Shown: in pieces, positions 13,926 through 64,000 of the stretch
Numbering within the stretch: position 1 is the stretch's first letter
How the letters are laid out: each line of letters opens with the position of its first letter
Assembly: GCA_050700355.1 (NCBI GenBank)
Contig: JBOHHE010000057.1
Span: 24,163-88,162, forward strand
Origin: Pseudonocardiaceae bacterium
Lineage (GTDB): Bacteria; Actinomycetota; Actinomycetes; Mycobacteriales; Pseudonocardiaceae
DNA length: 64,000 nt
Reading direction: 5' to 3'
Notes under the pieces: generated by a model
The model's input: the letters and a program-made list of their open reading frames with translations, nothing else
The model's database searches: none
What the model was told of the DNA's origin: nothing
Made by a program: the position numbers and the translations under genes

Positions 13926-13942
13926 CTTCATCGTATGCGGGG

Positions 13943-15046: not shown

Positions 15047-15074
15047 AGTCGCACGCCTTTCTGTTCACCTGGAC

Positions 15075-47915: not shown

Positions 47916-48022
47916 GCTCTATCTCCTCGGCGACCGCGGTCGGTCGCAGCTCGGTATGAAGGAAGCCCATGCTAACCGGCGCGCATCGAGGATTTCTCAG
48001 CATACGTTAAAAAGACACTACG

Positions 48023-48694: not shown

Positions 48695-48730
48695 AGGTAC
48701 CGCCGCAGCACCAGCAGTCCGGTAGCGTCG

Positions 48731-49036: not shown

Positions 49037-49039
49037 GTC

Positions 49040-49100
49040 TAAATCCTTTCCAATCGGAGTGTCGCCAATGGGAATGTCGCCAATGGGAATGTCGCCAATG
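49040..49100 (+). repeat. 15-bp tandem repeat (gtcgccaatgggaat) x3 plus partial flanking copies
   Basis: Perfect copies at 49051-49065, 49066-49080 and 49081-49095, with degenerate copies on both sides. The array begins 4 nt upstream of the small membrane protein start. Confidence 0.85.
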
Positions 49101-49498
49101 GGAATGTCGGAAGTGCGGCCACGGTCAGCGTGACCCGGTGGACAGCCCGGTCGCCGATCACTGCCACAGCCGGCGTCCGCCCCGTGGTGGGGTCACCGTG
49201 GGTGCCGCCGGTCGGGCTGCCGTCGTGGTCATCAGAGTCAGCCGGGCGCAGAGTGGCGAGCAGGCCGATCATGGGCAGGACCTCCATGCCGAACCGCATC
49301 CTGCGGCCACCTTCCGACGAGGATCACTCAAGCACATACTGTTTCCGTAAAAACGGATTGTCAAGATGCTATCACCCGCATATACGGATGATACAGACTT
49401 TAATCTTCTCATGAGCGGATATGATACGAGCTGGAGGGAAGGTACGCGGACATGGGGCAGGCTGACGAGCCGGGCCGTCGTCACCCTCGAGGTGCCCG

Positions 49499-50695
49499 GT
49501 GAGCGAGGCAGACTTTGCAAAGCTGTGGACGAACCCGCGCGGAAGCCAGACCAAGGTCCGGGAACGGCCCCACCGGATCGTCGCACTGGAGCCCGCGCGG
49601 ATCACCGAGTGCCTGCTCGCCCTCGGTGTCGTTCCGGTGGGTTCCTCCACCTACGAGGACCTCCGTACCCTGCAGCGTGGCCACTGGCCACCCGCCTTGC
49701 ACGGTCACGTTCCCCATCAGGTCGCCGACGTCGGTTGGTACCACGAGCCGCCCGATGCCGAGCGTATCCGCGCGGTGAATCCCGATCTCATCCTCGCCCT
49801 CGGCGGGGACGAGGACCGGCGCGGCGAGGAGCGGCGACTTCGGAAGTCGCCGCTGGCGGGTGTCGCCCCGATGATCCTGCTGGCCGACCGGCGCAGCCCC
49901 GACGACCGGCCCGCATTCATCGAACGACTCCGCGACCTGGCCTGGTTGACCGACCGAGCAGACCGCGCCGAGACACTGATCGACGGCTATGAAGCGCGCT
50001 GTGCCGCACTCCGGCCTCTCGTAGCGGGAGAGCTGGTCGCCGCAGTGTGGTTCCGCGCCGGAAAAGTCGCGATCTACACCCGCCATCACACCAGCCAGGT
50101 GTTCACCGACCTGGGCATCACCGTGGAGGAACCGCCCGGTGAACCAGTGTGGCCCTCCGACACCTGCCCGCGGGCCCGTTTCATCGGCCATGACGGCCTT
50201 CACGGGTTACGCTCCCCCGCCTTCGTCTTCACCCAGCGCTACGTCGACGCCAGCGAGACCGCAGGGTTTCTGTCCGACCCCCGATGGGCTCAGCACCCCA
50301 CCGTCGTCGCGGGCAACGCACTGTTCCTGGGATGGCCCCTGCTCAACAGTGGTTACTTCAGCTCGCATGCCCAGCTCGATGCCATCGAGCGGCTGTTCGG
50401 TGTCACCGCAGTCGCCGCTCGGATCAGTCACACGGTCGTCCGGGTGGGAATCCGTGCCGCCCGAGGTCTGGCCAGCTGGTCCGTCCAAGGCCCCGCCCTC
50501 GACGGCGACGTGTGGATAGGAAGCCGGGGCGACCGGGTTCTCGTTCTCGACGCCGACAAGCAGCTCGGTCGATGCACGCTTGCCGGTGATCGGCAACTCG
50601 CTCTCCACAACTTCCGACTGTGGGTGGCGAACCGCGAGGGTCTGCACGAACACCTGCTCGTACCCGACTCGGTAGAGCTCGTACTCCAATCCTGA
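49499..50695 (+). CDS. periplasmic-binding-protein (FecB/BtuF type) like protein with C-terminal extension, no evident signal peptide
   Basis: RIVALEPARITECLLALGVVPVG and NPDLILA motifs of class III SBPs. GTG start. The last ~100 aa are unassigned. Confidence 0.6.
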   Translation: MSEADFAKLWTNPRGSQTKVRERPHRIVALEPARITECLLALGVVPVGSSTYEDLRTLQRGHWPPALHGHVPHQVADVGWYHEPPDAERIRAVNPDLILALGGDEDRRGEERRLRKSPLAGVAPMILLADRRSPDDRPAFIERLRDLAWLTDRADRAETLIDGYEARCAALRPLVAGELVAAVWFRAGKVAIYTRHHTSQVFTDLGITVEEPPGEPVWPSDTCPRARFIGHDGLHGLRSPAFVFTQRYVDASETAGFLSDPRWAQHPTVVAGNALFLGWPLLNSGYFSSHAQLDAIERLFGVTAVAARISHTVVRVGIRAARGLASWSVQGPALDGDVWIGSRGDRVLVLDADKQLGRCTLAGDRQLALHNFRLWVANREGLHEHLLVPDSVELVLQS

Positions 50696-50728
50696 CCTGT
50701 ATCCGCTGCGGCTCACTCGACCACTTCA

Positions 50729-52426
50729 TCAGCAGTTGGGTCGGCAGGCCCTACGTCCGATCGCTTCGAGCACGACCTCACGGATCTGCCGCGGATCCTG
50801 CGCTCGATACATCTCGCCGCCGGTAGCAGCACTCATCGCCGTGAGGGCGTCGGTATCCGCGTCGGCCCCGTACGCAATCGTGAGCAGGAGCACGGGACGC
50901 GCCGGATCATGTTCCGCTCGCAGTGTCGCGAGCAGCATTTCCAGCGTGATCCCGTCAGGGTCATCATCCTTGCCATCTGTCAACAGCACGACCGAATTGA
51001 CGCTGTCCGCACGCCAGCTTTCGCGCAATGATCGAACAGCAGCCAGCGCCGTGTCGTATAAGGCCGTTTCGCCGTTGGGTACCGCCTGGATCGACCCTAG
51101 GGCCTGCGCCAGCCGCTCCCTCCCGGTGGTGCCATCGGGGTTCTTGCCGAGCCGGATCACGGGCACCAGCTCCCGGTAGTCAACGCCGGGCGCCAGGTTC
51201 GTCGAGAAGGTCCACAGCCCGGCCTCGGTGTCGTCGGGGTAGAGCGCCAGGCCGTTCACCGCTACCTGAAGCGCCACGTCGAGTTTGCTGACCCCGCCGC
51301 CCCCAGGGGCCAGCGCCGCCATGGATCCCGAGACGTCGAGGACCGTGAGCAGACGCGACCCACTTTGAATCGACGTGAGGGCACGGATCGCCGTGTCGAT
51401 ACTCCCGGTGTCGGGCACCGCACCGACGTCGGTGCGAGCCGGATCGATACCGTCCACCGCGCTCAGCTGTGGACCCGCCGCCCCGCGTACGTCACGGAAT
51501 CCCGCAGCCTGCAGCCGCTGTTGCCCGATGTCACCAGTGAGCTGGTCGAGCAGCCGCTGCGCGCGGACCCGCTGAGCGTGCTCGGAGGAGAGCACGATGT
51601 ACGGGTAGTCCAGGGTGTAGCCCTCCTCGGGCAGGTAGACCACGCTGGCTCGACTGCGCGGACGTTGCGCGTTACGCAACCACACCTGCTGCTCCGTCGT
51701 CGGAACGACGCGAGCCGTGCCCTGGCGCAGAGAGGCCAGCAGCTGGTCAGACCGTTGACTGGTCCGCTCGGCGGCGCGTATCACGCCCGTGAGGATTGCT
51801 CTCGCGTCGGGCCGATCGGCGAGAGCCGACTGCAATCCGAGTACCAATCCCACCGTCGGCGCGGAGCGGTTGGGGTCGGCGAGGGCGAACTGGACCGGGC
51901 CGGCGGCGACGTCTGGGGCGGGCAGCAGAGTCTGGACATCCGGCTGACCGAGCTGCCCGGCCACATCCTCGGGCAATGCCACCACGATCGGCGAGCGGGC
52001 GACGGAGACATTGTTCTGTGGCAGTCCTCGGCCGATCGGAGAGCTCCGATTCACCCATACGGAGGAATCGGCGATCCAGACATCAGGGCGATCACCCTGC
52101 TCGGCCGCAATCGCGTCCGCGACCTCCGCGGGGTCAATGGCTGTTACGACGGGCGGTGCACAGGCACTCGTTTGATTTCCGGGAAACGTCGTGGCCACCA
52201 GATCGGCGACGACACCAGCGATCTCCGGCGCCGCGGAGACGTTCAACGGGCGGGTGGCCCCGTCACAGGGCACGTTCTCCTCAGCGCCTGTCGAGGACCA
52301 CACGATGCCGCCGAGCACTATTCCTGCTGCGGCGCAGGCCACCACCGCCGTCCGCAGTCGGCCGCGCGGGCCGCGACGCCGAGGACTCTCGTATTCCTGC
52401 GCCAGGGAACTGTTTCGATCCGTCAT
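50729..52426 (-). CDS. membrane-anchored substrate-binding-like + von Willebrand factor A domain protein
   Basis: N-terminal TM anchor and the MIDAS motif LDVSGSMA in the C-terminal half. The start overlaps the upstream MMPL stop by 4 nt. Confidence 0.75.
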   Translation of the reverse strand: MTDRNSSLAQEYESPRRRGPRGRLRTAVVACAAAGIVLGGIVWSSTGAEENVPCDGATRPLNVSAAPEIAGVVADLVATTFPGNQTSACAPPVVTAIDPAEVADAIAAEQGDRPDVWIADSSVWVNRSSPIGRGLPQNNVSVARSPIVVALPEDVAGQLGQPDVQTLLPAPDVAAGPVQFALADPNRSAPTVGLVLGLQSALADRPDARAILTGVIRAAERTSQRSDQLLASLRQGTARVVPTTEQQVWLRNAQRPRSRASVVYLPEEGYTLDYPYIVLSSEHAQRVRAQRLLDQLTGDIGQQRLQAAGFRDVRGAAGPQLSAVDGIDPARTDVGAVPDTGSIDTAIRALTSIQSGSRLLTVLDVSGSMAALAPGGGGVSKLDVALQVAVNGLALYPDDTEAGLWTFSTNLAPGVDYRELVPVIRLGKNPDGTTGRERLAQALGSIQAVPNGETALYDTALAAVRSLRESWRADSVNSVVLLTDGKDDDPDGITLEMLLATLRAEHDPARPVLLLTIAYGADADTDALTAMSAATGGEMYRAQDPRQIREVVLEAIGRRACRPNC

Positions 52427-55335
52427 CGCGAAATCTCCCCTCGTACCGAGGTCCGGGTGAGGAAGCGGACCGCCTCGTGGTCCAGGGCCTGTGTCAGGTA
52501 CCGGATGACAGTATTGATGTGGCTGCGCAGCTCATCGTCGGACATGATACGGGCAGCAGACACGACGACGCTGAAGACGCCGAACCAGATCCACCGCTTG
52601 TAATCCCGCCAACACTGCTCAAGCGGATATCCGGTGATTCCCCCCTCGACTAAATGGGCGTGGTAAGCACCCACCAAGTCCCACTCAGTAGCCCGTCGCA
52701 CCTCGGTGGGCAGCCGGCCGACGAGGTACGCCACGTCGATCAGCGGCGGGGCATGCATGACCAGCTGCCCGTTCACGGGGACTGCCTCGCGTCGACTCTC
52801 CACACCGGTGGTGAACGGCAGATCGAGGTGTAAGTCGGCATGGAGCAGGGCGCGATGGCCATGGTTGGCGCACACCCATCCCGCGAAGTCGCTCCGGTCC
52901 AGTGCGGTACCGATGGCGAACAACTCGGGTTCCAGTACAGTCTCCGGGCGGGACGTCAAGGAACGCCATGCATCGTGGTACAGCTTCTGCCACGTCCCGG
53001 CAGTCACCGGGTCGAGATGGTTCAGCCATGCCAGCCGGGCCAGCGCGGGGTCATCCCAGGTCGTGGCATGCAGCCGGGCCAGCTCGCGCACAGCCGGCAA
53101 GGCGTCCTCGGGCAATGGTGTCGGAACCGGCCCGCGCAGCTGTCCGAAAGCGGGTGCGTCACGGATGCCGAAGCGCCGGACGAAGCCGGCCAGTGCAGAC
53201 GGCAGCCACCAGCTCGCCGGTCCCAGCAGTCCCATCGTCGCAGGCAGAAGGATCGCCCGGATCACAGTCGCGTCGATCAGAATGGTGAATACCAAGCCGA
53301 GACCGATCATTTTGACAAAGCTGATGCCCGATAACGAGAATGCGCCGACAACGACGACGAGCAGGAGCGCAGCACTGGTGATGATAGGAGCGGTATGCTC
53401 CATCCCGGTAGCAACAGCCAGCGTGTTGTCGTGGGTACGATCCCACTCTTCCCGGACGCGGGAGATGAGGAACACCGCATAGTCCGTCGACAGACCGAAC
53501 GCGATGGCGAACATGAGGATCGGTTGGGTGGCCTCCACCGTGCCGGTCGGCGTGAAACCGAGCAGGCCGGACAGATGTCCGTCCTGGAATACCCAGACGA
53601 TCGCACCGAATGACGCCGACATCGACAAGACGCTCAGCACCACCGCGGCCAGCGGCAGCGCGACCGACCCGAAAGCAAGAAACAGGACGAGAAGTGTCAT
53701 GGCGAACATCGTCGCCACCATGAAGGGCAAGATCTTCCGCAGATTGTCGATCAGGTCCACCAACTCGGCGACACTGCCGCCGACCAACGCCTGGCCACCT
53801 GTCGGCGGCGTAGTGGCGCGGATGTCGGCCACCAGGCGACGCGACTGGGCCGGCTCCTCTTCACCGTAGGGGTGCCGCACGCTCACTCGCGCCGTGGCCC
53901 CTGCCTCGGCCGTGACCATGGCGGACGTGACCCCGGGCAGGCCCCGCAGCCTCTCGATGTACTCGCCCAATGCCACAGTTGCGGCAGGGCTGGGAGCGCC
54001 TGATAGGAAGGTGACGAGCACATTGATCGGATCCGGCTCACCACCCGGGAAGTCCGCAGTGAGCTGTTCGGCGACCTGGCGACTCTCGGTTTCCTGGGGC
54101 AGTGCCCGGTAGTCGATCTGACCGAATTGCACCCTCAGGAAGGGGAGGCCGAGCAGGAGCAGCAGCGGCACCATCACAAGTAGCACCGCAATCGGCCGCC
54201 GCATCACCGCCTTCGCGAACCGGAACCATGAGCCGGGGAGCTCCCGACTCCCCCGTACCCAGCCGGGCAGCACGGCGAGCGCGTCGATGCGAGGACCCAG
54301 CACGGCCAGGACGGCGGGCAGGATGGTCAACGCTGCCAGCACCGCGAGGGCCGTGATCGCGATTCCCGCCAGGCCGATCGAACGGAAGTAGACCTGCGGG
54401 AACAGCAGCAGGGTGGCGAGCGTGGTTGCGACGATGACTCCGGAGACGAGCACCGTGCGCCCGGTGGTCGCCAAGGTCTGGGCGATCGCGGCCGCAACCG
54501 TATCCTGCCGGCGCAGCTCCTGCCGGAACCGTGTGATCATGAGCAGCGCATAGTCCACCGCGAGCCCGAGCCCGAGCATGATGACGACGTTGACGGAGAA
54601 CACCGACACGTCGGTCGCCTGGGTCAAACCCCGGAGCAAGGCGAATGCGCCGACAATGACCACGGCCCCGATTACCAGCGGCACAGTCGCGGCGACGACG
54701 CCGCCGAGTAACAGAATCAGCAGCGCGAGCAGTATGGGCAGGGACAGGAGCTCGGCCTTCTGGATGTCGCTTCTGACCTGACTTTTGATGTCATAGTCAA
54801 TGGCCAGATCCCCGCCCACTTCGATGTCGAATCCCGTCGGCGGGCTGGAAAGCTCATCCCTTATCCGTTCGAACACGTCCTTCCGAGCGGACTCGTCCGC
54901 GCCGACGAGGCGCAGTGGCACGGCAATGCTGTGCCCGTCGGTGGAAACCAGCCGAGGAGAGCCAGTCGACCACGGCGTCTGGACATCGAGAACGTCCGAG
55001 GGCGCCAGCTGGGCCAGATCGTCCTCGACGGAGCCGCGGTACTCGGGATCGTCGGCCGTGAGGTCATTGCTCCGGTAGAGCAGGACCACATCCGGCTCTT
55101 CGCGCAGAAGATCCCTGTCTTCGACCTGATCGGCCTGGGCGGATTCACTGCCCGGATCGGAGAAACCGGCACCGGCCAGATCTCCGAACACACCGGAACC
55201 CCACCCGGCCGCCAGGACAAAGATCGCCAGTCCAGCGCCGAGAACCGACCATCTCAGCCGGCAGACGACATAGCCCCACGCGCTCAACATCTGCGATGTT
55301 CCCCCTCTCCCGCTGCCGCCCAGCGGCCGGTACAC
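52423..55335 (-). CDS. MMPL-family transporter fused to a C-terminal degenerate phosphotransferase (APH/EcKL-like) C-lobe
   Basis: A 12-TM MMPL body followed by ~225 aa containing LARLHATTW, LLHADLHLDL (in place of HGDxxxxN) and MHAPPLIDVAYLVG (in place of DxxxxxPxxDLA). Confidence 0.85.
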   Translation of the reverse strand: MYRPLGGSGRGGTSQMLSAWGYVVCRLRWSVLGAGLAIFVLAAGWGSGVFGDLAGAGFSDPGSESAQADQVEDRDLLREEPDVVLLYRSNDLTADDPEYRGSVEDDLAQLAPSDVLDVQTPWSTGSPRLVSTDGHSIAVPLRLVGADESARKDVFERIRDELSSPPTGFDIEVGGDLAIDYDIKSQVRSDIQKAELLSLPILLALLILLLGGVVAATVPLVIGAVVIVGAFALLRGLTQATDVSVFSVNVVIMLGLGLAVDYALLMITRFRQELRRQDTVAAAIAQTLATTGRTVLVSGVIVATTLATLLLFPQVYFRSIGLAGIAITALAVLAALTILPAVLAVLGPRIDALAVLPGWVRGSRELPGSWFRFAKAVMRRPIAVLLVMVPLLLLLGLPFLRVQFGQIDYRALPQETESRQVAEQLTADFPGGEPDPINVLVTFLSGAPSPAATVALGEYIERLRGLPGVTSAMVTAEAGATARVSVRHPYGEEEPAQSRRLVADIRATTPPTGGQALVGGSVAELVDLIDNLRKILPFMVATMFAMTLLVLFLAFGSVALPLAAVVLSVLSMSASFGAIVWVFQDGHLSGLLGFTPTGTVEATQPILMFAIAFGLSTDYAVFLISRVREEWDRTHDNTLAVATGMEHTAPIITSAALLLVVVVGAFSLSGISFVKMIGLGLVFTILIDATVIRAILLPATMGLLGPASWWLPSALAGFVRRFGIRDAPAFGQLRGPVPTPLPEDALPAVRELARLHATTWDDPALARLAWLNHLDPVTAGTWQKLYHDAWRSLTSRPETVLEPELFAIGTALDRSDFAGWVCANHGHRALLHADLHLDLPFTTGVESRREAVPVNGQLVMHAPPLIDVAYLVGRLPTEVRRATEWDLVGAYHAHLVEGGITGYPLEQCWRDYKRWIWFGVFSVVVSAARIMSDDELRSHINTVIRYLTQALDHEAVRFLTRTSVRGEISR

Positions 55336-55470
55336 GAAGCGGCGTCCACTTCTACTGAGGAGGCAATGCGCGGTGCAGATACATCATCTTGCCGACCCGC
55401 TCGGCGGGCGTGTAGCATAGTGATCAAGTCTTTCGAATCGTGGCCGATCCCGTGATTCCATGTGACCACC

Positions 55471-55498
55471 GACGGTGCACATATGACGGTGCACATAT
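55471..55498 (+). repeat. perfect 14-bp tandem duplication gacggtgcacatat x2 in the divergent MMPL/MFS intergenic region
   Basis: Copies at 55471-55484 and 55485-55498. They contain the gtgcac and catatg palindromes and lie about 80 nt upstream of the MFS start. Confidence 0.8.
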
Positions 55499-55577
55499 TT
55501 GGTCGCCAAACCGGGTCCGGAGCGGGCATCATCCAGGAACGGATGACGTACCTGCGTGAAGTCTGAGGGGGATTTGA

Positions 55578-57014
55578 ATGGCCGCCGCCCACGGCTATCT
55601 TCCTACTCTGACCTCCACCAGCAGGGTTCCGCCGTGGACCTTCCTGCTCACTGCGGTAGCCGCGTTCATGGTGGCGTTGGACAACCTGGTGGTGGTCACC
55701 GCGCTGCCGGCAATCGGGAAAAGTCTCGACTCCGGCATCGAAGGCCTGCAATGGACTGTCGGCGCCTACACGCTGACCTACGCGGTCTTCCAGCTGTCCG
55801 GAGCCGCCCTCGGTGATCGCTTCGGACGCCGAAGGGTCTTCGTCGTCGGCCTGCTGCTGTTCACCGTCGCGTCCGCGATCGCGGCGTTCGCCCCGAACAT
55901 TCACGCCCTGGTCGGGGCACGAGCCGGCCAGGGTCTCGGTGCGGCGCTGGTTTCCCCGCTGGCCCTGACAATCCTGGCCGGCGCCACCCCACGGACCAGA
56001 AGGGCCGCCGTGCTCGGCAGATGGACCGCCATCAGCGGAATCGCCATCGCCATCGGCCCGGTGGTGGGCGGCGCAATCGTTTCGGGTGCACGTTGGCAGT
56101 GGATCTTCTTGATCAATGTTCCGATCGGTGCCCTGCTGATCCCAGCCGCGTGGCTGAAGCTGAGCGAATCTCGCGGCCCGCACGGCAAGCTGGACGTTCC
56201 GGCAGCGCTACTGGCCAGCGGTGGTCTGCTTGCGCTGGTTTTCGGATTGATCAACGGCAATGATCACGGCTGGACCAGCTACCCGGTGCTGGGAGCGTTG
56301 GGGTGCGCAGTGGTGCTGCTCACCGCATTCGTGACCTGGGAGTCGCATACCCGCTTCCCGATGCTGCCCATGGTCCTGTTCCGCGCCAGGGGCTTCGCCG
56401 CGTCGGTGTCGATCTACCTGATGATGGCGTTCGGCCTGTTCGGCTCGATCTTCCTACTGACGCAGTTTCTGCAGCTGGAGCTGCACTACTCGGCGCTGGC
56501 GACGGGCTTGGCGATATTGCCGGCCGCGGCGATGCCGGCCGTGGTCGCGCCGCTGATCGGCCCGCTTGACCGGCGTATCGGTGGGCGCGCAACAGTGGTG
56601 ATCGCTCTCGCGCTGCAGGCGGCCGCGCTCGGCTGGCTCAGTGTGGTCTCCCGTTCCGGAGTGGACTATCTGGGGCTGCTGCCTGCCCTGATGCTGATCG
56701 GAATCGCCGCTGGCCTGTTCTTCGGCCAGGTGTCGCGGCTCATCCTCGCCTTCGTACCCCCGGGGTACGAAGGCATGGCCTCCGGTACGGGAACAACATT
56801 CCGCCAGCTCGGCACGACACTCGGAGTCGCGGTTCTCGGCGCCGTGTTCGCGGCGACGGGCGGCTACGCCGATGTCACGGATTTCAGCGCCGGCCTGGAC
56901 ATCGCGCTCAAGGTGGGTGCCGCGGTTTCCGCGGTGGCCGTGGCGATCGCACTGCTCGTGCCGCCGCTCGCGGACCGGGTGCGACCGGCCGCCCGAGCGG
57001 GAAGGGCAGCCTGA
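55578..57014 (+). CDS. MFS transporter, DHA2 (EmrB/QacA, 14-TMS) type
   Basis: The FMVALDNLVVVTALPAIGKSL motif and about 14 hydrophobic segments. Its stop overlaps the next start (TGATG). Confidence 0.85.
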   Translation: MAAAHGYLPTLTSTSRVPPWTFLLTAVAAFMVALDNLVVVTALPAIGKSLDSGIEGLQWTVGAYTLTYAVFQLSGAALGDRFGRRRVFVVGLLLFTVASAIAAFAPNIHALVGARAGQGLGAALVSPLALTILAGATPRTRRAAVLGRWTAISGIAIAIGPVVGGAIVSGARWQWIFLINVPIGALLIPAAWLKLSESRGPHGKLDVPAALLASGGLLALVFGLINGNDHGWTSYPVLGALGCAVVLLTAFVTWESHTRFPMLPMVLFRARGFAASVSIYLMMAFGLFGSIFLLTQFLQLELHYSALATGLAILPAAAMPAVVAPLIGPLDRRIGGRATVVIALALQAAALGWLSVVSRSGVDYLGLLPALMLIGIAAGLFFGQVSRLILAFVPPGYEGMASGTGTTFRQLGTTLGVAVLGAVFAATGGYADVTDFSAGLDIALKVGAAVSAVAVAIALLVPPLADRVRPAARAGRAA

Positions 57015-57583
57015 TGAGCGGCAACCGGCTCGACGTCGCGGTCGTGCACGGCCGGTTTCAGCCATTACACGTGGGGCACCTGGAGTACCTGCTGGCGGGC
57101 AAGAGCCGCTGCCGAACCCTGATAGTGGGTATCACCAATCCTGATCCCACCCAGGTAGCGGTGGAGACCACCGCCCCGCATCGAGCCGAGGAGTCAGCCA
57201 ATCCGTTCACCTTCTACGAGCGCCACCTGATGGTCGACGGCGCGCTCGGGGAGAACGGGGTGGCGCCCGAGGAGTTCCGGATCGTGCCGTTTCCACACAG
57301 CTTTCCGGAGCGACTGAAGTATTACGTGCCCGACGATGCGGCGTTCCTGATGACAATCTACGACGCCTGGGGTGAGGAGAAGCTCCGGCGCTTCACCGAG
57401 CTCGGCCGCCACTGCGAGGTGCTGTGGCGCAGCACCAGCGCGGTGACCAGTGGGACCGCGATCCGGCAACGAATCCGGCACGGGCAGCCGTGGGAACACC
57501 TCGTTCCCAGCGCGACGGCCGAGGTCATCCGGCGGGTTCCAGCAGACCGGCTTGGCGTGCAACCGGGAGTGAAACGTGGCTGA
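57014..57583 (+). CDS. cytidylyltransferase-superfamily nucleotidyltransferase (PhpF-like candidate)
   Basis: The GRFQPLHVGH (HxGH) motif lies at the N-terminus. 189 aa. Confidence 0.7.
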   Translation: MSGNRLDVAVVHGRFQPLHVGHLEYLLAGKSRCRTLIVGITNPDPTQVAVETTAPHRAEESANPFTFYERHLMVDGALGENGVAPEEFRIVPFPHSFPERLKYYVPDDAAFLMTIYDAWGEEKLRRFTELGRHCEVLWRSTSAVTSGTAIRQRIRHGQPWEHLVPSATAEVIRRVPADRLGVQPGVKRG

Positions 57584-58853
57584 TAAGATCATTCTGCTTG
57601 CCTTGTGCGGCGCCGCCGACCGTCCGGCGGACGGGCCTACCCCGCTCGATCAGGCCCGGTTGCCCCATTTGGACGCGCTCTCGGTGAGAGGTGCGCTCGG
57701 CACCCTCACCGTGATCGACAGCGACATCCCCCCGGAATCGGACTCCGGAGCGCTGGCCCTACTCGGTTACGAACCGATCGAGCACTACACCGGCCGAGGG
57801 CCGCTCGAGGGGTTCGGCAACGGGTTTCTCCGTCCCCGTGCCGACGTTTCGACCGTGTGCTTCCGGCTGAACATGGCCAGCTACGACGCCGGGACGCAAC
57901 GCTTCGACCGCCGGACCGCCCGCGACCTGTCCGATGTCGAACTACAGGGGCTGCTCGATGAGGTACGCACCGGCGTCTCGCTCGCCGACCACGACGCCGG
58001 CTTCGAGGTCATGGGTTTCGGGCGGCACCGCGGGGTGCTCGCCCTGCACAGCGCCACCCGAAAGCTGAGTGGAAACGTGACCAACACCGACCCGGAGTAC
58101 GACCGGGTCGGTGCCTTCGGCGTGCCGAGGCGACACCATGGCGATGGCCCGGTCCGCTGCTGCCCGCTCGACTTCTCGACGGCCAGCCGCGACACCGCGA
58201 ACCTGGTCGAGATCTTCCTCGCGCGCAGCGCGTCAGTGCTGGCCGCGAGTGAGATCAACCGCACCCGGCTGGCCAACGGCAAGCTGGCGGCGAACCAGAT
58301 CATCGTTCGGGACGGCGGCGACCGACTTCCCGAACTGCGGCCGTTTCGCGAGCTGCACGGCCGCACGCTGACGTTGTACGGCCAGGTACCTGCCGAACGT
58401 GGCCTCGCCCGGTTGATGGATGCCGCCTGGGTGGACTGTCGGCGCGCCGCGGAGATGAATGAGACCACCTACTATGCCGACCTGGCCGAAGCCGTGGCCA
58501 AGGACTCCGCAGACGTCGTCTACGTTCACGTCAAGGGAGCAGACGAAGCCGCGCACGATCGGGATTTCGACGGCAAGGTCACCGCACTCGAGCGGGTCGA
58601 CCAGCTGCTCATCGCCGAACTGCTGCCCCGGATGCGCCCGGTCGACACGTTGCTCGTGACCGGTGACCACGCCACTCCGTGGCGGGCAGGCATCCACACC
58701 GCAGATCCGGTTCCGGTCCTTGCCGTCGGTGGCGGTGTCGAGCCGGACGGATGCACCTCGTTCACCGAGACCGCGGCGCGCGCCGGCTCGCTCGGTCACC
58801 GCCGGGCCTGCGAGCTGTTGTCCACGGTGACCGCGTACCGAGCCGGACGGTAA
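57576..58853 (+). CDS. archaeal-type cofactor-independent phosphoglycerate mutase family protein (PhpG-like candidate)
   Basis: PESDSGALALLGYEP, TGRGPLEGFG and GDHATP...HTADPVP motifs. Overlaps the previous gene by 8 nt. Confidence 0.75.
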   Translation: MADKIILLALCGAADRPADGPTPLDQARLPHLDALSVRGALGTLTVIDSDIPPESDSGALALLGYEPIEHYTGRGPLEGFGNGFLRPRADVSTVCFRLNMASYDAGTQRFDRRTARDLSDVELQGLLDEVRTGVSLADHDAGFEVMGFGRHRGVLALHSATRKLSGNVTNTDPEYDRVGAFGVPRRHHGDGPVRCCPLDFSTASRDTANLVEIFLARSASVLAASEINRTRLANGKLAANQIIVRDGGDRLPELRPFRELHGRTLTLYGQVPAERGLARLMDAAWVDCRRAAEMNETTYYADLAEAVAKDSADVVYVHVKGADEAAHDRDFDGKVTALERVDQLLIAELLPRMRPVDTLLVTGDHATPWRAGIHTADPVPVLAVGGGVEPDGCTSFTETAARAGSLGHRRACELLSTVTAYRAGR

Positions 58854-58855
58854 CC

Positions 58856-59977
58856 ATGATTGAGTCGGTAGGTTTCTGCTCAACGCTGAAGGATCGCGGT
58901 TTCCGGCTGTTCGCAGCTGTTCCGTGCTCGTTCTTCAAAGGCGTCGTGAACGTCCTGCTCGACGATCCGGACGTCTACTATGTACCTGCCGCCAACGAGG
59001 GCGCCGCGCTGGCGGTCGCGGCGGGAGGAGCGCTGGCAGGCACCCGGTCGGTGGTGCTGTTACAGAACTCCGGGCTCGGCAATCTGATCAACCCGCTGGC
59101 TTCCCTTTCGATCCCGTTCGCGCTGCCGTGCCTGCTGATCGTCAGCTGGCGGGGATGCCCGGACCTGCCCGCCGACGAACCGCAGCACGCGGTCATGGGG
59201 GCCAGCACTCCGGCGCTGTTCCACGAGTTGGGGGTCAGCCACTGGACGCTGCCCGACGACCCCGACGAGCTCCCGTCCATCATGGACGCTGCAGATCGGG
59301 AGATGGACAAGACCGGTCGACCGGTCGCGCTGCTGCTGCGCAAGGGTGTGCTCTCCGATGGGCCGGGCCGGTACCCCGCTGCCACGAGCTACCCGCTGCG
59401 CCGGGGTGCGGTGCTGCGCCAGGTACTCGACCGGCTCACCGATGATGACGCGATCATCTCCACCACCGGGATCACCTCGCGGGAGCTGTTCGCCATCCGG
59501 GATCGCCCGGCCAACTTCTACATGCAGGGCTCCATGGGCCATGCCATCGCGATCGCGCTCGGTTGCGCGATCTCCCAGCCGGACCGGCGGTTCGTGGTGT
59601 TCGACGGGGATGGGGCGGCGCTGATGCATCTCGGCACACAGTCCACCGTGGGGGCCTGCGCACCACCGAATCTGGTGCACATCGTGGTGGACAACGAATC
59701 CTACGATTCCACCGGCGACCAGGACACCACGGCCGATCACACCGACCTCGCCGGCGTCGCCAGGGCCTGTGGCTACCGGCAGGTCCACCGCTGCACCGAC
59801 CGGGCATCCCTGCACACGGCCACCACAGCCGCGTTGAGCGGGCCAGGACCCACGTTTCTCCATGTGAAGGTCGCGCGCGAGCACGCAACGGCGCCACCGA
59901 GAGTGACTTCGGCGCGCTCGCCGACCGAGGTCGCCAGACGATTCACCGATCGCATCACCGAGGCGGAGGCGTCATGA
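58856..59977 (+). CDS. ppd: phosphonopyruvate decarboxylase (ThDP-dependent)
   Basis: The ATG at 58856 gives MIESVGFCSTLKDRGF...VPCSFF. ThDP motif FDGDGAALMHLG...VVDNESYDSTG. It lies 2 nt after the previous stop. Confidence 0.85.
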   Translation: MIESVGFCSTLKDRGFRLFAAVPCSFFKGVVNVLLDDPDVYYVPAANEGAALAVAAGGALAGTRSVVLLQNSGLGNLINPLASLSIPFALPCLLIVSWRGCPDLPADEPQHAVMGASTPALFHELGVSHWTLPDDPDELPSIMDAADREMDKTGRPVALLLRKGVLSDGPGRYPAATSYPLRRGAVLRQVLDRLTDDDAIISTTGITSRELFAIRDRPANFYMQGSMGHAIAIALGCAISQPDRRFVVFDGDGAALMHLGTQSTVGACAPPNLVHIVVDNESYDSTGDQDTTADHTDLAGVARACGYRQVHRCTDRASLHTATTAALSGPGPTFLHVKVAREHATAPPRVTSARSPTEVARRFTDRITEAEAS

Positions 59978-61368
59978 CTGACCGGAGCTACCGGAGCAGG
60001 ACCGGCGCGACATTTCGCGGAATAATCAACGACCTCAAACGCAACACCGAGTCCGCGGCAGCCGAACTCGGCGTCGAGCCCGAGCTGATCGACCGAATCA
60101 TCGCCGGGGAGATGGACGTTCCTGCCGAGCTGGTGCGCCGTGCGGTCAGCAGCTGGCCGGTCAACGAGCGCGACTTCTTCCCGATCCATGACGACGCCCC
60201 GGACGGCGTCATCGTGATGCGGGCCGACGAATCGGCCAAGACCAGCCGGGTCTTCCAGCGTGGCGGCACCGATTATTACGAGTACCGCGATACCGCGATG
60301 AGCCGAGTGGCGATGTTCCGACCGGAGTGGATCAAGATGCTTCAGCCGGTCACCGATGATGATCCAAACAACCCCGCGGTGCGCTGGAACAACGGTCATT
60401 TCCTGTACCAATTCACCTATTTCGTCGGAGCGGTGAACTATTACTACGAGTGGGAGGGCCGTCGCCACTGCGCGGTGATGAACACCGGGGACTCGGTGTC
60501 CGGGCTCCCCTATGCTCCGCACAGCTTCACCCGCCGCGGCGCCGAACCCGGATTGATCCTGGCGTTGACCTACGGTGGCCGGTTACTCGGCGACGCGCAA
60601 CACGAGATCGGTGCGCTGGGTCCCGAGCTCGCCCAGCAGTACGCCCCGGCGGCCGACGACGAGCTGTCGGCGTTCGCACATCTGCTGACCGAGCAGCTCG
60701 CCGACACCCTGCTGACGCCGGCTCAGCTGGCCGGCACCAGCGGGATGGCACCGCAGCGCGTTGCCGAGCTACTCGCTGGACGAGCCACGCCCTCGGCGGC
60801 GGAGGTTGACACGCTGGCCGAGGCGCTGCGGGTCAACTCCCGTGATCTCCTGCCGATGATCGGAACCGAACGTGACGGCGTGCAGATCATGCGCGGTGCC
60901 GCCGCGCAGACCTGGTTTGTGCCCGACGTGGACGCCCCGGCGTATCGGGTCAAGGCGCTGGCCGGCACCCGACTGTGTCCGAGCTCGCGGGCACTGGAGA
61001 TCGAGGTGCTCGGCTCCGATCCGGCCGCCGCTCACCAGCGCACCGGCCTGCACCAGTATTGCTACGTGCTCGGCCCCGACCCGGTCGATCTGGCTTGGGA
61101 GCACCGAGGAGAGCGATTCGGCGCACGGCTCGAACCGGGCGATTCGCTCTATCTCAAACCATTCGTACCGCACGGTTTCACCCGCTGCGGCGACGGCAGC
61201 GCCGCGGTACTCGCCCTGCGAATCGGCGGAAAGGTCTCCGGCGACGCCCGCCGGGAGGCCGCCGCGCTCGGCAGGGCGACTGTGCGGCGACTGGTGTCGG
61301 ACAACGGCCAGTGGTACGACCCATCGCGCACCAGCCCGACCAACGGGCAGAGACGAGGAAAACGATGA
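59974..61368 (+). CDS. 2-hydroxyethylphosphonate dioxygenase (HEPD) / methylphosphonate synthase family bi-cupin
   Basis: ATGA overlap with ppd. N-terminal HTH-like segment followed by two cupin halves. Candidate Fe site at H142, Q146 and H183. Confidence 0.75.
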   Translation: MTDRSYRSRTGATFRGIINDLKRNTESAAAELGVEPELIDRIIAGEMDVPAELVRRAVSSWPVNERDFFPIHDDAPDGVIVMRADESAKTSRVFQRGGTDYYEYRDTAMSRVAMFRPEWIKMLQPVTDDDPNNPAVRWNNGHFLYQFTYFVGAVNYYYEWEGRRHCAVMNTGDSVSGLPYAPHSFTRRGAEPGLILALTYGGRLLGDAQHEIGALGPELAQQYAPAADDELSAFAHLLTEQLADTLLTPAQLAGTSGMAPQRVAELLAGRATPSAAEVDTLAEALRVNSRDLLPMIGTERDGVQIMRGAAAQTWFVPDVDAPAYRVKALAGTRLCPSSRALEIEVLGSDPAAAHQRTGLHQYCYVLGPDPVDLAWEHRGERFGARLEPGDSLYLKPFVPHGFTRCGDGSAAVLALRIGGKVSGDARREAAALGRATVRRLVSDNGQWYDPSRTSPTNGQRRGKR

Positions 61369-62267
61369 TCAACAAGAGCGGCCGGCTACGCGAAATGCTC
61401 GAACATGGCGACATCGTCCAGGTTGCGGGCGCGCACGACGGAATGAGTGCGAAGCTGGTCGAGTCCAACGGCTTTTCCGCCGTCTGGGCCTCCGGTTTCG
61501 CGCTGTCCACCTGCCATGCGGTGCCCGACGCCAGCATCCTCACGATGACTGATTACCTGCATGCGGCACGAGTGATGAACTACGCGGTGGACATCCCGGT
61601 GATCGCCGACTGCGACACCGGGTTCGGCAACAGCCTCAACGTCAGCCACATGGTGAAGTACTACGAGCTCGCCGAGATCGCCGCGGTGTGCATCGAAGAC
61701 AAACGCTTTCCCAAACTGAACAGTTTCCTCGGCGGCGGCCAAGATCTCGAGCTGGCGGAGGATTTCGCCGATAAGATCGCCGTCGGCAAGCGGAGCCAGC
61801 GCGGAACGGACTTCGTGATCATCGCCAGGACCGAGGCGTTCATCGCCGGGTTCGACGTCAACGAGGCTCTGCGCCGCGCACACATCTACGCCGATGCCGG
61901 GGCAGATGCGATCCTGGTCCAGTCCAAGGCACGCACCCCGGAACAGGTCTTTACCTTCCTGCGGGGGTGGAATCAGCGGCTTCCGGTGGTGGTCGTGCCC
62001 ACCAGCTACCACCAGGTGACCGCGGACGAGCTCGCCGAAGCCGGCGCGCGCATGGTCATCTACGCCAACCAGGCCATTCGCGCCGGAGTGCGGGCGATGG
62101 ACGAAACACTGCGGGAGATCAGGACCAGCGGAACGACAACGCGGGTCGAGTCGCGGATCGCACCGATGAAGGAACTCTTCGAGCTGCAGGGAGTGCGCGA
62201 GCCGACCGCGCGAGAGGTCGGGAACGGCTACTACCCGGCTGAGCACGTCAGCAGAACCAGGCTGTGA
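61365..62267 (+). CDS. pepM: phosphoenolpyruvate mutase
   Basis: ATGA overlap with the upstream gene. PepM signature EDKRFPKLNS (EDK-X5-NS) and the DCDTGFG motif. Confidence 0.9.
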   Translation: MINKSGRLREMLEHGDIVQVAGAHDGMSAKLVESNGFSAVWASGFALSTCHAVPDASILTMTDYLHAARVMNYAVDIPVIADCDTGFGNSLNVSHMVKYYELAEIAAVCIEDKRFPKLNSFLGGGQDLELAEDFADKIAVGKRSQRGTDFVIIARTEAFIAGFDVNEALRRAHIYADAGADAILVQSKARTPEQVFTFLRGWNQRLPVVVVPTSYHQVTADELAEAGARMVIYANQAIRAGVRAMDETLREIRTSGTTTRVESRIAPMKELFELQGVREPTAREVGNGYYPAEHVSRTRL

Positions 62268-63424
62268 CGCCGACTGCCCCACGTGGCCGGATCGAGCGGC
62301 GGGCCGGGGCCGGAGTGATCCGCGAGCTGCCGGCGTTGCTGCGAGCCCGTGGGGTGCGCTCCTGTCTGCTCGTCACCGGCGGAAAGTCCTATGTCGACTC
62401 CGGGGCCGCGAGTGTCGAGCAGTTGCTCAACGGCATCGAGGTAACCCGCGTGGCCGGCATCCGGCCAGATCCCGACCTGGCCGACCTCACCCCCGGGGTG
62501 GCCCGGCTGCGGGCCGCCGGGGTCGACGCCGTCATCGGAATCGGCGGTGGCAGCGTCCTCGATTACGCCAAGGCGATAACCGCGCTGGCTCCCCAGGACC
62601 ATTCGCCGGAAGAGAGCTACACCAATGGGGTAAGGGCGCTGGTCAACGAACGAACCCACCTGCTGGTGCTGGTCCCGACCACCGCAGGCACCGGCAGCGA
62701 GGTCACCTCGATCGCCGTGCTGACTGTGCAGGGCCGCAAGCGATCACTGCACCACCCCCGGCTGCTCGCCGACATCGCCGTCATCGATCCGGCGCTCACC
62801 CTGTCGGTACCGCCGTGGATCACCGCGAGCACGGGCGCCGACGCACTCAGCCAGGCGATCGAGTCCTACTGGTCGATCAGCTCCACCGATCGATCGAGGC
62901 GTTACGCGCTGGAGTCGATGACGCTGGCCGCTGGCCACCTCCAACGCGCCACCGGCGACGGTGACCTGCCCGCCAGGATCGCGATGAGTCAGGCCGCGAC
63001 GCTGTCCGGGCTGGCCATCGACATCACCCAGACCACTGTGCCGCACGCGCTCTCCTATCTGCTCACCACCAGGTTCGGAGTACCGCATGGCCACGCCTGC
63101 GGAGTTTTCCTCCGGCCGGTGCTGGACTACAACGCCGGAGTCGGGCCCGCTGATGTCGCCGATCCCCGAGGGGTCCGGTTCGTTCTGGCCAGGATCCGGG
63201 AGATCACCAGCTGCCTGCGCGCCGCCGGCGCCGGTGATCACCCGGGGGCGATCGACGACCTGCTGCGTGGAGCCGGGCTCAGCATGGAACTCACCGGCTT
63301 CGGAGTCGCGGTGGCCGATGTCGACGCGCTGGTCGATGCTGCCATGGATTCGCCGAGAATGACCGCCAATCCCAGGTACGTCCCGCGCGAAGCACTGCGC
63401 GAACTGGTTCTCGCCCGGCTGTGA
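62264..63424 (+). CDS. iron-containing (group III) alcohol dehydrogenase, phosphonoacetaldehyde reductase candidate
   Basis: GTGA overlap with pepM. GIGGGSVLDYAK and PTTAGTGSE motifs. Confidence 0.8.
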   Translation: MTPTAPRGRIERRAGAGVIRELPALLRARGVRSCLLVTGGKSYVDSGAASVEQLLNGIEVTRVAGIRPDPDLADLTPGVARLRAAGVDAVIGIGGGSVLDYAKAITALAPQDHSPEESYTNGVRALVNERTHLLVLVPTTAGTGSEVTSIAVLTVQGRKRSLHHPRLLADIAVIDPALTLSVPPWITASTGADALSQAIESYWSISSTDRSRRYALESMTLAAGHLQRATGDGDLPARIAMSQAATLSGLAIDITQTTVPHALSYLLTTRFGVPHGHACGVFLRPVLDYNAGVGPADVADPRGVRFVLARIREITSCLRAAGAGDHPGAIDDLLRGAGLSMELTGFGVAVADVDALVDAAMDSPRMTANPRYVPREALRELVLARL

Positions 63425-63447
63425 GCCCGACCCGCGAAGGAGTGCTG

Positions 63448-64000
63448 ATGTCCCCGTCGATCGTCGTGTACACCGATCCCGCCTGGGCCGTGGCCGACGG
63501 GCGCCGCGTCGACCCCGACCGGGCGACCATTGAACGTGAGGTCTTCGGGAACACGGTCGACCTGCGATTCGGTCCGCTGAGCTCCGGGCGGTACGCGACT
63601 GAGGGCGCCGCCCTGCTCGACACGGTGACCGGTGCCTGCGCGCTCGGCGTGTACCGATGCCCGGTGACGCCCGAGCTGCTCGACGCCGCCGGTTCAACGC
63701 TGAAGGTGGTGGCCAGGCAGGGCGTCGGCACCGACAATCTCAACGTGCCGCTGCTCACCGAACGGGGGCTGATCGGTTTCAACGTCCCGGATTACTGCGT
63801 CGATGAGGTGGCCGTACACACCATCGCCATGGTGCTCTCCTGGGAGCGCGGCCTGATCGATCAGCACAACGACCTGGCCGGTGGGAGGTTCGACATCTAC
63901 CACGGATCGATCCCGCGACGGTTGAGCCGGCTGACGGCCGGCATCATCGGGCTCGGCCGGATCGGCAAGGCCGTCGCGCACCGGCTGCGCACCTTCTACC
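63448..64000 (+). CDS. D-isomer-specific 2-hydroxyacid dehydrogenase (PhpE-like candidate), 3' end outside window
   Basis: ATG preceded by gaaggag. The frame stays open to the window edge. GIIGLGRIGKAVA NAD-binding motif. Absent from the ORF track because no stop lies in the window. Confidence 0.8.
   Translation, partial: MSPSIVVYTDPAWAVADGRRVDPDRATIEREVFGNTVDLRFGPLSSGRYATEGAALLDTVTGACALGVYRCPVTPELLDAAGSTLKVVARQGVGTDNLNVPLLTERGLIGFNVPDYCVDEVAVHTIAMVLSWERGLIDQHNDLAGGRFDIYHGSIPRRLSRLTAGIIGLGRIGKAVAHRLRTFY

Follow-up and report, generated by a model that had tools for sequence, protein, structure and literature searches.

A window of 64,000 nucleotides from a Pseudonocardiaceae bacterium (GenBank assembly GCA_050700355.1, contig JBOHHE010000057.1, positions 24,163 to 88,162 of the forward strand) was analyzed, and the element studied here is a phosphonate biosynthetic operon that begins at window position 55578 and runs off the 3' edge. 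An initial annotation, made from the letters of the window alone, had described it as a translationally coupled operon built around phosphoenolpyruvate (PEP) phosphomutase (PepM) and resembling the early phosphinothricin pathway. The eight co-directional genes on the + strand, from 55578 to the window edge, were confirmed with all of their coordinates. Families were assigned to the window products by Pfam and NCBIfam searches, which supported every enzyme that had been proposed: the PepM motif is intact, and the phosphonopyruvate decarboxylase (Ppd) and the PhpG protein score above equivalog cut-offs. This part of the window is the 5' 8.4 kb of a PepM-dependent biosynthetic gene cluster of about 22 kb. 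The guess of a pseudonocardial host also proved right, as NCBI labels the identical downstream proteins 'MAG: ... [Pseudonocardiaceae bacterium]', and the purK-purE / accD5-type / accA3-type neighbourhood in the window agrees with such a host.

Organization of the operon

The same eight genes were called by an independent gene-calling pipeline on two near-identical public contigs (100% and 99.9%), with products of 478, 189, 425, 373, 464, 300, 386 and 348 aa. The major facilitator superfamily (MFS) gene and the PhpF gene meet at TGATG (57012-57016), and PhpF and PhpG overlap by 8 nt (GTGGCTGA, 57576-57583), a stretch that holds both the GTG start of PhpG and the TGA stop of PhpF. The TAA stop of PhpG (58851-58853) is followed by a gap of two nucleotides, CC (58854-58855), and by the ATG of Ppd at 58856. 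The junction between Ppd and the 2-hydroxyethylphosphonate dioxygenase (HEPD) is ATGA (59974-59977), as is that between HEPD and PepM (61365-61368), and the junction of PepM with the iron-containing alcohol dehydrogenase (Fe-ADH) is GTGA (62264-62267). Between the TGA stop of Fe-ADH (63422-63424) and the ATG of PhpE (63448) lies a 23-nt gap with a GAAGGAG ribosome-binding site. A row of seven functionally related genes, joined by six junctions that overlap or nearly abut, is an operon and not a chance array.

When the 242 bp 5' of the MFS gene were scanned for promoters, no sigma-70-type site was detected. This divergent intergenic region holds a perfect tandem duplication of the 14-mer GACGGTGCACATAT at 55471-55498, about 80 nt 5' of the MFS start codon, with the palindromes GTGCAC and CATATG in each copy. 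The duplication was seen in contigs of the same species only (L086 and L087), not in orthologous clusters, and it may be a candidate operator for the cluster.

Exporter, PhpF and PhpG

The first gene (55578..57014, +) encodes a DHA2-family MFS efflux transporter of 478 aa that matches PF07690 with 168 bits and TIGR00711 (efflux_EmrB) with 235.2 bits, above the cut-off of 230.2. Orthologues with 59-65% identity start the same operon in the comparison loci L001, L003, L083 and L091, and the protein is probably an exporter or a self-resistance protein.

The second gene (57014..57583, +) encodes a PhpF-like nucleotidyltransferase of 189 aa (PF01467, CTP_transf_like) of the archaeal nicotinamide mononucleotide adenylyltransferase type, as is PhpF itself. 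The nucleotidyltransferase motif HGRFQPLHVGH is present, and the protein is 59% identical to the gene product in the PhpF position of Kitasatospora phosalacinea. From the function reported for PhpF (PMC8976061, PMC6697681, bioRxiv 10.1101/2025.05.01.651723), we infer a phosphonoformate cytidylyltransferase that would give CMP-5'-phosphonoformate.

The third product (57576..58853, +) is a PhpG orthologue of 425 aa with the fold of archaeal-type 2,3-bisphosphoglycerate-independent phosphoglycerate mutases. It scores 558 bits on the equivalog model NF038358 (phophono_PhpG, cut-off 545), residues 4-419 covering model positions 1-416 of 417, and only 281.7 bits on the generic apgM model; its identity to K. 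phosalacinea PhpG is 48-49%. It is the predicted CMP-5'-phosphonoformate--3-phosphoglycerate phosphonoformyl transferase, the reaction being as named by NCBIfam. Proteins of this kind are rare: an exhaustive HMMER search yielded about nine representatives of 50%-identity clusters with at least 299 bits, and matches below 299 bits grade into ordinary archaeal-type phosphoglycerate mutases. Two of the PhpG-like representatives are longer fusions, P0159 with 619 aa (about 190 extra N-terminal residues) and P0161 with 815 aa (about 400 extra C-terminal residues), the former possibly a PhpF-PhpG fusion.

PepM, Ppd and HEPD

PepM (61365..62267, +, 300 aa) matches PF13714 with 182.7 bits (cut-off 31.5), and its best match in the PDB is the PEP phosphomutase 5UNC with 300 bits. 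The EDK-X5-NS signature noted in the initial annotation is intact at residues 111-120 (61695..61724, +) and reads EDKRFPKLNS, which aligns to EDKRFPKVNS of 5UNC; the phosphonopyruvate hydrolase 2DUA has EDKTFPKDTS, that is TS for NS, at this position. Among 60 PepMs from related loci, 59 carry EDK-X5-NS and the other one has TS. On the equivalog model TIGR02320 the protein scores 294.1 bits against a cut-off of 319.55; this is still the top NCBIfam model, 40 bits ahead of phosphonopyruvate hydrolase and 119 bits ahead of PrpB, and we do not regard the shortfall as disqualifying because of the signature motif and the adjacent Ppd. A Ppd, which consumes phosphonopyruvate, is encoded two genes upstream in the same operon. 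The protein neither sorts with the methylisocitrate/isocitrate lyases nor lacks the signature in alignment, and the NS motif together with the score ranking rules out phosphonopyruvate hydrolase and methylisocitrate lyase as its identity.

A neighbour-joining tree of 61 PepM sequences placed the window PepM on a long branch with argolaphos-type clusters, while the PepMs of clusters of the window's own type (L001 and L093) fell in the neighbouring Frankia-type clade; both groups stand apart from the phosphinothricin/Nocardia clade. Ppd itself (58856..59977, +, 373 aa) has the TPP_enzyme_N and TPP_enzyme_C domains and scores 389 bits on the equivalog TIGR03297 (cut-off 312.5).

The HEPD gene (59974..61368, +) encodes a cupin/helix-turn-helix protein of 464 aa with no NCBIfam model. 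Its two top PDB matches are nearly equal, 6B9R (Streptomyces albus HEPD) with 402.6 bits and 6B9S (methylphosphonate synthase, MPnS) with 402.0 bits, and it does not match structures of the PhpD type. The alignment gives H142, Q146 and H183 as metal ligands (2-His-1-Gln), and Y156/G177 align with Y163/G184 of 6B9R and with F162/I184 of 6B9S. The alignment agrees with the numbering Phe162/Ile184 for MPnS, which we take to be that of Born et al. 2017. A Tyr-Gly pair is diagnostic of class II HEPD (PMC8976061), so the pair at 156/177 points to an HEPD making hydroxymethylphosphonate, and MPnS was rejected as the identity of this product. K. phosalacinea PhpD, a class I enzyme, gave no tblastn match in the window or in the downstream contig L090. 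By its residues and closest matches, the putative HEPD belongs to the argolaphos/S. albus class and not to the phosphinothricin class.

Fe-ADH and PhpE

Fe-ADH (62264..63424, +, 386 aa; PF00465 and PF25137) has the phosphonate-associated model TIGR03405 (Phn_Fe-ADH) as its top NCBIfam match, with 197 bits against a cut-off of 423.7, and is 40% identical to K. phosalacinea PhpC in the C-terminal half. Its context suggests a phosphonoacetaldehyde reductase in the role of PhpC. The last gene (63448..64000, +) encodes a PhpE-like D-2-hydroxyacid dehydrogenase (PF00389 and PF02826), of which the window holds the first 184 of 348 codons; the full gene is present in L087, where the DNA is 100% identical. 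The protein shares 54% identity with K. phosalacinea PhpE across 310 aa and 68-72% with its counterparts in L091 and L001, and is a likely hydroxymethylphosphonate dehydrogenase. With the partial PhpE as query, a word-indexed protein search returned nine weak relatives only.

The region beyond the window edge

Two public contigs extend the operon. L087 (Logan SRR27067769) is 100% identical to window 54984-64000, and L086/L090 (NCBI GCA_975304795.1, contig CDHZXO010000168.1) is 99.89% identical to window 46999-64000. Positions past 64000 are given as window equivalents from these contigs, and the downstream region as a whole is described from L090. In these terms the cluster occupies 55.5-77.5 kb, which corresponds to about 30.5-52.5 kb of CDHZXO010000168.1.

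Directly after PhpE stands a PhpJ-like aldehyde dehydrogenase (ALDH; 64494-65882, +, 462 aa, Aldedh), one of the genes that the initial annotation had named to be sought in the missing half; it is 55% identical to K. phosalacinea PhpJ, and its best NCBIfam model is phosphonoacetaldehyde dehydrogenase, with a score under the equivalog cut-off. With it the early php gene set is complete, seven functions lying in the window and the PhpJ-like gene directly past its edge in L087 and L090. Of the other genes named there, those for PhpH, PhpI, a radical-SAM P-methylase and a non-ribosomal peptide synthetase (NRPS) do not occur in the following 13.5 kb. The genes called on L090 include no enolase, second PEP-mutase paralogue, radical-SAM enzyme, NRPS or N-acetyltransferase. 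K. phosalacinea PhpH and PhpK gave no tblastn match in the window and L090, and PhpI matched only PepM there, at 29%.

Their place is taken by other genes. A UbiA-family protein (65923-66954, +, 343 aa, PF01040) starts 40 nt from the ALDH stop, and an Exo_endo_phos (EEP) protein (66951-67877, +, 308 aa) overlaps it; both are translationally coupled to the phosphonate operon in this genome. Convergent to them is an operon on the - strand at 67.9-75.3 kb that encodes a conserved 207-aa protein, an acyl carrier protein (ACP; PP-binding, 84 aa), a PEP-utilizers protein of 500 aa, two NAD_binding_4 reductases of 327 and 372 aa, an acyl-CoA-dehydrogenase-family protein (ACAD, 402 aa) and an AMP-binding enzyme of 564 aa. 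It is followed on the + strand by a PPDK_N/PEP-utilizers protein of 390 aa and a DinB_2/MDMPI_N protein of 261 aa that ends at about 77.5 kb. Neither the 207-aa protein nor the N-terminal 400 residues of the 500-aa PEP-utilizers protein had a family match. In NCBIfam the best model for the 402-aa dehydrogenase is MbtN, the acyl-ACP dehydrogenase of mycobactin (335 bits), and the 564-aa ligase matches fatty acyl-AMP ligases (FAAL) including MbtM (188 bits). The 372-aa reductase matches the thioester-reductase domain and the other is of the fatty acyl reductase (FAR) type, and the two PEP-utilizers proteins match PEP synthase, PigC/RedH and rifampicin phosphotransferase. We refer to the FAAL, the ACP, the MbtN-like dehydrogenase, the two reductases and the two PEP-utilizers proteins as the fatty-chain module.

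The UbiA protein belongs to the UbiA prenyltransferase superfamily, as judged by PF01040, both Asp-rich motifs and a multi-helix membrane fold. The residues of NDxxDxxxD and DxxxD (N69, D70, D73, D77, D197 and D201) are invariant in 27 homologues, and the AlphaFold2 (AF2) model is all-helical, with a predicted local distance difference test score (pLDDT) of 95.8. Its best PDB fold is the archaeal digeranylgeranylglyceryl-phosphate (DGGGP) synthase 7BPU/6M31 (template modelling score 0.60/0.71), followed by ApUbiA; the nearest solved proteins by sequence are chlorophyll synthase (best) and DGGGP synthase. Both of these are O-prenyltransferases, DGGGP synthase acting on a glycerol-phosphate hydroxyl and chlorophyll synthase on a carboxylate, and share both Asp-rich motifs with the cluster protein, which differs from them in that sequence identity is only about 15%. 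Scores for functionally defined subfamilies are far lower than their cut-offs (PRK12884, 88 bits against 269; DGGGP synthase models of NCBIfam, 47-56 bits against 296-353). Homologues with at least 60% identity form ten 90%-identity clusters, nearly all metagenomic. Another UbiA homologue, in locus L089, stands beside a polyprenyl synthase, a terpene synthase, an MFS gene and a PhpG fragment. The AF2 model of the EEP protein (pLDDT 94.3) has the fold of TDP2/nocturnin-like Mg-dependent phosphoesterases.

Comparison with orthologous loci

Orthologous clusters were compared from Micromonospora sp. ATCC 39149 (GG657738.1; L003/L093), a Micromonosporaceae metagenome-assembled genome (L001/L082; DASRII010000282.1) and the metagenome contigs ERZ27338833 NODE_921 and Ga0193707_1000682. 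The closest relatives (59-74% identity) share the core MFS-PhpF-PhpG-HEPD(II)-PhpE-ALDH-UbiA, and orthologues in the comparative loci are 35-72% identical to the Pseudonocardiaceae proteins. The metagenome contig L091 carries 16 genes in one co-directional operon from MFS to EEP, in the order MFS, PhpF, PhpG, HEPD, PhpE, ALDH, UbiA, FAAL, ACAD, two reductases, PEP-utilizers, ACP, PPDK_N, a 189-aa homologue of the 207-aa protein, and EEP. Micromonospora sp. ATCC 39149 has the run ALDH-UbiA-FAAL-ACAD-reductases-PEP-utilizers-ACP-PPDK_N-EEP, with PepM and Ppd next to it on the other strand, and both this strain and NODE_921 carry the same fatty-chain module as the window genome. Where seen in the orthologous clusters, ppd, pepM and Fe-ADH lie downstream on the opposite strand, whereas in the window genome they are interleaved into the first operon, and the fatty-chain module of the window genome is inverted relative to theirs. 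No product has been described for the orthologous clusters in the searchable literature.

These loci bear on whether the phosphonate operon and the lipid genes are two unrelated neighbouring clusters, the former giving free phosphonoformate, phosphonoformyl-glycerate or a hydroxymethylphosphonate derivative as its small polar product and UbiA, EEP and the fatty-chain module forming a separate lipid pathway. The opposite strand of the fatty-chain operon in the window genome fits such a division, as do a module without phosphonate genes in Actinocorallia and a phosphonate part without fatty-chain genes in L001/L082. It is at odds, however, with the translational coupling of UbiA and EEP to the phosphonate operon, with the position of UbiA directly after ALDH in all five independent loci, with the presence of EEP in the same cluster in each of the four loci long enough to show it (L090, L001/L082, L091 and L003/L093), and with L091, where phosphonate and fatty-chain genes are interleaved in a single 16-gene operon with EEP last. 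We consider two separate clusters rather unlikely, and the gene orders in the comparative loci indicate that the two halves form one cluster.

Some details of these loci stand apart from the question. In ATCC 39149, the sole cultured carrier found, PhpG and PhpE look split or truncated in the open reading frame calls (L003 7327-8345 and 9953-10705; tblastn coverage of PhpG 52%), which could reflect frameshift errors of an old assembly or real decay. Beyond EEP, the cluster of this strain includes a CMAS-type methyltransferase, a second pair of ACP and AMP-binding genes, and a fatty-acid desaturase beside PepM and Ppd. The Actinocorallia locus (L088, JBDPLZ010000008.1, 3006-20856) has UbiA, FAAL, MbtN-like, reductase, PEP-synthase-like, ACP and DinB genes as an operon of its own, accompanied by two P450s, a luciferase-like monooxygenase, an ABC transporter and an aldo-keto reductase. 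This module looks like a separate lipid-type cluster family that has yet to be characterised.

Relation to known phosphonate and phosphinate clusters

Sixty-eight actinomycete loci centred on PhpE homologues sort into recognisable types, namely phosphinothricin/phosalacine, Nocardia, argolaphos and Frankia types and the type of the window. The phosphinothricin/phosalacine type (FeADH..PhpE-PepM-Ppd-PhpF-PhpG) includes K. phosalacinea and Nonomuraea candida, the Nocardia type has no PhpF and PhpG, and the argolaphos type (HEPD-PepM-Ppd-FeADH-PhpE) includes Streptomyces monomycini NRRL B-24309.

The php cluster of Streptomyces viridochromogenes, S. hygroscopicus and K. phosalacinea follows the same logic up to PhpG, through PepM, Ppd, Fe-ADH, HEPD, PhpE, PhpJ, PhpF and PhpG, the functions assigned to PhpC, D, E, J, F and H being those given in PMC8976061 and bioRxiv 10.1101/2025.05.01.651723. 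Identities to the K. phosalacinea cluster (L049) are 54% for PhpE, 55% for PhpJ, 59% for PhpF, 49% for PhpG, 42% for PepM, 41% for Ppd and 40% for PhpC. The gene order had been suspected to differ, and it does: MFS-F-G-ppd-hepD-pepM-adh-E-J here against phpC-D-E-ppm-ppd-F-G-H-I-J-K, so that the locus, with identities of 39-59%, is neither collinear nor near-identical with php. The proposed likeness to the early phosphinothricin pathway holds through PhpG except at one step, where a class II HEPD (His/Gln/His) stands in place of PhpD. In the window and L090, the PhpH enolase, the PhpI carboxyphosphoenolpyruvate (CPEP) mutase, the PhpK P-methyltransferase, the NRPS (PhsA-C) and the acetyltransferase of php are missing, and a UbiA transferase, an EEP phosphoesterase and the fatty-chain module are found instead.

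With no PhpH, PhpI or PhpK, formation of a C-P-C bond is not expected. The initial annotation had left open a phosphonate or a phosphinate, and we retain the phosphonate and drop the phosphinate, for which neither PhpH, PhpI nor a P-methylase was found in the 13.5 kb past the edge. A phosphinothricin-like phosphinate pathway could still be imagined if the later genes (PhpH, PhpI, P-methylase and peptide assembly) were elsewhere or replaced by housekeeping enzymes, given that homologues of PhpE, PhpJ, PhpF and PhpG have so far been tied to phosphinothricin-type biosynthesis and that a class II HEPD also occurs in the phosphinate-type metagenome locus L081, with its enolase and second PEP-mutase paralogue. 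We regard it as very improbable: no homologue of PhpH, PhpI, PhpK or the NRPS is present in the 64-kb window and 13.5 kb downstream, the same absence is seen in L091, L001/L082 and L003/L093, where UbiA occupies the position after PhpJ, and PepM and HEPD fall outside the phosphinothricin clade and class.

L081 itself (ENA ERZ25039463 contig_132882) encodes a class II HEPD (46% identity) together with PhpE, PhpJ, PhpF, PhpG, an enolase and a second PEP-mutase paralogue, as well as a B12/radical-SAM enzyme and an acetyltransferase, with many genes fragmented in the calls. Its gene content identifies it as a putative phosphinothricin-like phosphinate cluster using the other HEPD class.

The argolaphos (alp) cluster of S. 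monomycini NRRL B-24309 has the five steps from PEP to phosphonoformaldehyde in common with the window cluster, including a class II HEPD with Tyr/Gly and a PhpE-like dehydrogenase (PMC8976061). The window PepM (53%) and HEPD (50%) are nearer to the argolaphos type than to the php type, PepM being in the same neighbour-joining clade. In argolaphos biosynthesis phosphonoformaldehyde is transaminated to aminomethylphosphonate, which is then built into a peptide, whereas the window cluster has no transaminase or peptide ligase; unlike argolaphos, its ALDH, PhpF and PhpG point to phosphonoformate and CMP activation.

The off-window lipid genes have their nearest parallel in the enzymes of the mycobactin lipid tail, as MbtM (FAAL), MbtL (ACP) and MbtN are the best NCBIfam models of the ligase, ACP and dehydrogenase, with scores under the equivalog cut-offs. 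This trio suggests that a fatty acid would be loaded on ACP and desaturated at C2-C3. The window cluster differs from mycobactin in what follows the acyl-ACP, which is two enzymes of FAR/thioester-reductase type and PEP-synthase-like phosphotransferases, and not an acyltransferase.

Proposed pathway and product

Taken together, the genes suggest that the cluster makes phosphonoformate, activates it with CMP and lipidates it, giving an amphiphilic lipid-linked phosphonate of the phosphonoformate type and not a phosphinate, a reading to which we assign a probability of about 0.6. That a new end product is made, as had been suggested, is strengthened by the UbiA/phosphoesterase/fatty-chain genes in the off-window half. 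Homology strongly supports, where it does not establish, that every step from PEP to phosphonoformate, the CMP activation and the PhpG transferase are encoded. PepM and Ppd would convert PEP to phosphonoacetaldehyde, Fe-ADH would reduce this to 2-hydroxyethylphosphonate, the class II HEPD would give hydroxymethylphosphonate, the PhpE-like dehydrogenase phosphonoformaldehyde, and the PhpJ-like ALDH phosphonoformate. The PhpF-like enzyme would then form CMP-5'-phosphonoformate, and the PhpG orthologue would transfer the phosphonoformyl group to (3-phospho)glycerate. Since there is no enolase or CPEP mutase, phosphonoformyl-(phospho)glycerate would not be turned into a phosphinate. The DGGGP-synthase-like UbiA protein is proposed to O-alkylate or O-prenylate phosphonoformyl-glycerate or a close derivative, and the EEP enzyme to remove a phosphate or phosphodiester group, after which the MFS pump would export the product.

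The lipid donor may be either a common polyprenyl diphosphate or an alk-2-enyl diphosphate that derives from a fatty acid, and the fatty species could serve as the UbiA donor or as a second substituent beside a polyprenyl chain. The fatty-chain module would plausibly take a fatty acid through acyl-ACP, 2-enoyl-ACP and an aldehyde to an allylic alcohol, to be phosphorylated by the PEP-synthase-like enzymes. The closest parallel in chemical terms is moenomycin, whose 2-O-prenyl-3-phosphoglycerate anchor comes from a non-homologous enzyme. A bolder version holds that phosphonoformate, the drug foscarnet, is here naturally conjugated to a lipid through a new use of CMP-5'-phosphonoformate and PhpG, and that a fatty-acid-derived allylic (alk-2-enyl) diphosphate, not an isoprenoid, is the UbiA donor: FAAL and ACP would load the chain, the MbtN-like enzyme would desaturate it at C2-C3, the two reductases would lead to the allylic alcohol, and the two PEP-synthase-like enzymes would phosphorylate it. 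We offer this 'pseudo-prenyl' donor, which would be a substrate class new to the UbiA superfamily, as a long shot. Our confidence is moderate in a lipidated phosphonoformate and low in any specific donor chemistry.

Several points weigh against the lipidated-phosphonoformate reading. All of its chemical steps are drawn from homology and gene context, and Fe-ADH, the PhpF-like protein, ALDH and PepM all score under their NCBIfam equivalog cut-offs. The acceptor of UbiA is a guess; the relative chlorophyll synthase esterifies a carboxylate, so another linkage is possible. The two halves are separable: L001/L082 has MFS-PhpF-PhpG-HEPD-PhpE-ALDH-UbiA-EEP with PepM, Fe-ADH and Ppd and no fatty-chain module within the locus, and in Actinocorallia sp. 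B10E7 (L088) there are no phosphonate genes within 10 kb of the UbiA/fatty-chain module. Finally, the absence of phpH and phpI covers 78 kb of the genome, that is, the 64-kb window plus 13.5 kb downstream.

The same enzymes might instead decorate the cell envelope, UbiA placing a phosphonoformyl-glycerate head group on a polyprenyl (phosphate) carrier or membrane anchor for a cell-wall polymer or structural phosphonolipid. The UbiA superfamily includes membrane phosphoribosyltransferases acting on polyprenyl phosphate, and 8J8J is among the fold matches of the cluster protein; most PepM neighbourhoods have been predicted to make phosphonoglycans or phosphonolipids (PMC6697681), and the window has two MmpL lipid transporters immediately upstream. 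The 22-kb cluster, however, has no glycosyltransferase or polymer-assembly gene, its first gene is a DHA2 drug-efflux-type MFS pump that is kept in every family member while the MmpL genes are not conserved, and the rare, patchy occurrence of the family is what one would expect of specialised metabolism. Envelope decoration seems to us improbable, and an exported lipid-linked phosphonoformate remains the preferred reading.

PhpF/PhpG chemistry has so far been tied to phosphinothricin biosynthesis, as a stepping stone to the C-P-C bond. Here, a conserved and rare cluster family has it without the C-P-C machinery and joined to membrane lipid-transfer enzymes. If the preferred reading is true, lipid-linked phosphonoformate would be a new structural class in which a membrane anchor carries a pyrophosphate mimic; the CMP-5'-phosphonoformate/PhpG step would gain a second metabolic role; and a new kind of donor might be added to those of the UbiA superfamily. 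No description of the cluster family or of a lipid-linked phosphonoformate was found in the searchable literature, which did not cover the groups of PepM gene neighbourhoods defined by Ju et al. 2015. It held nothing relevant on phosphonoformate with prenyltransferases or UbiA, on phosphonolipids with FAAL, or on UbiA with non-isoprenoid donors, and a 2026 review of phosphonate natural products makes no mention of phosphonoformate, lipid or prenyl.

Other features of the window

No Rfam or tRNA matches were found in the window. Upstream of the cluster, an MmpL-family transporter (52423-55335, -) is divergent from the MFS gene and has about 250 extra C-terminal residues with no Pfam match, and a second one (45285-47915, -) has C-terminal CarboxypepD_reg/SdrD_B-like domains; a link of the two to lipid export is speculative, as they are not conserved beside orthologous clusters. 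A gene at 30831-36587 (+) encodes a STAND-type protein of 1918 aa with an N-terminal TIR domain, an NA-iREase3 (NACHT-associated inactive restriction-endonuclease) domain and a long C-terminal WD40 array, an architecture typical of candidate antiphage or conflict systems. An island at about 12950-17380 has a lower G+C content (57-61% against 65-69% elsewhere), looks horizontally acquired and carries genes for two D-Ala-D-Ala-ligase-like ATP-grasp proteins, a MurF-like Mur ligase with an N-terminal membrane region and an alpha/beta hydrolase; it may be a peptidoglycan-precursor remodelling or small peptide-ligase cluster.

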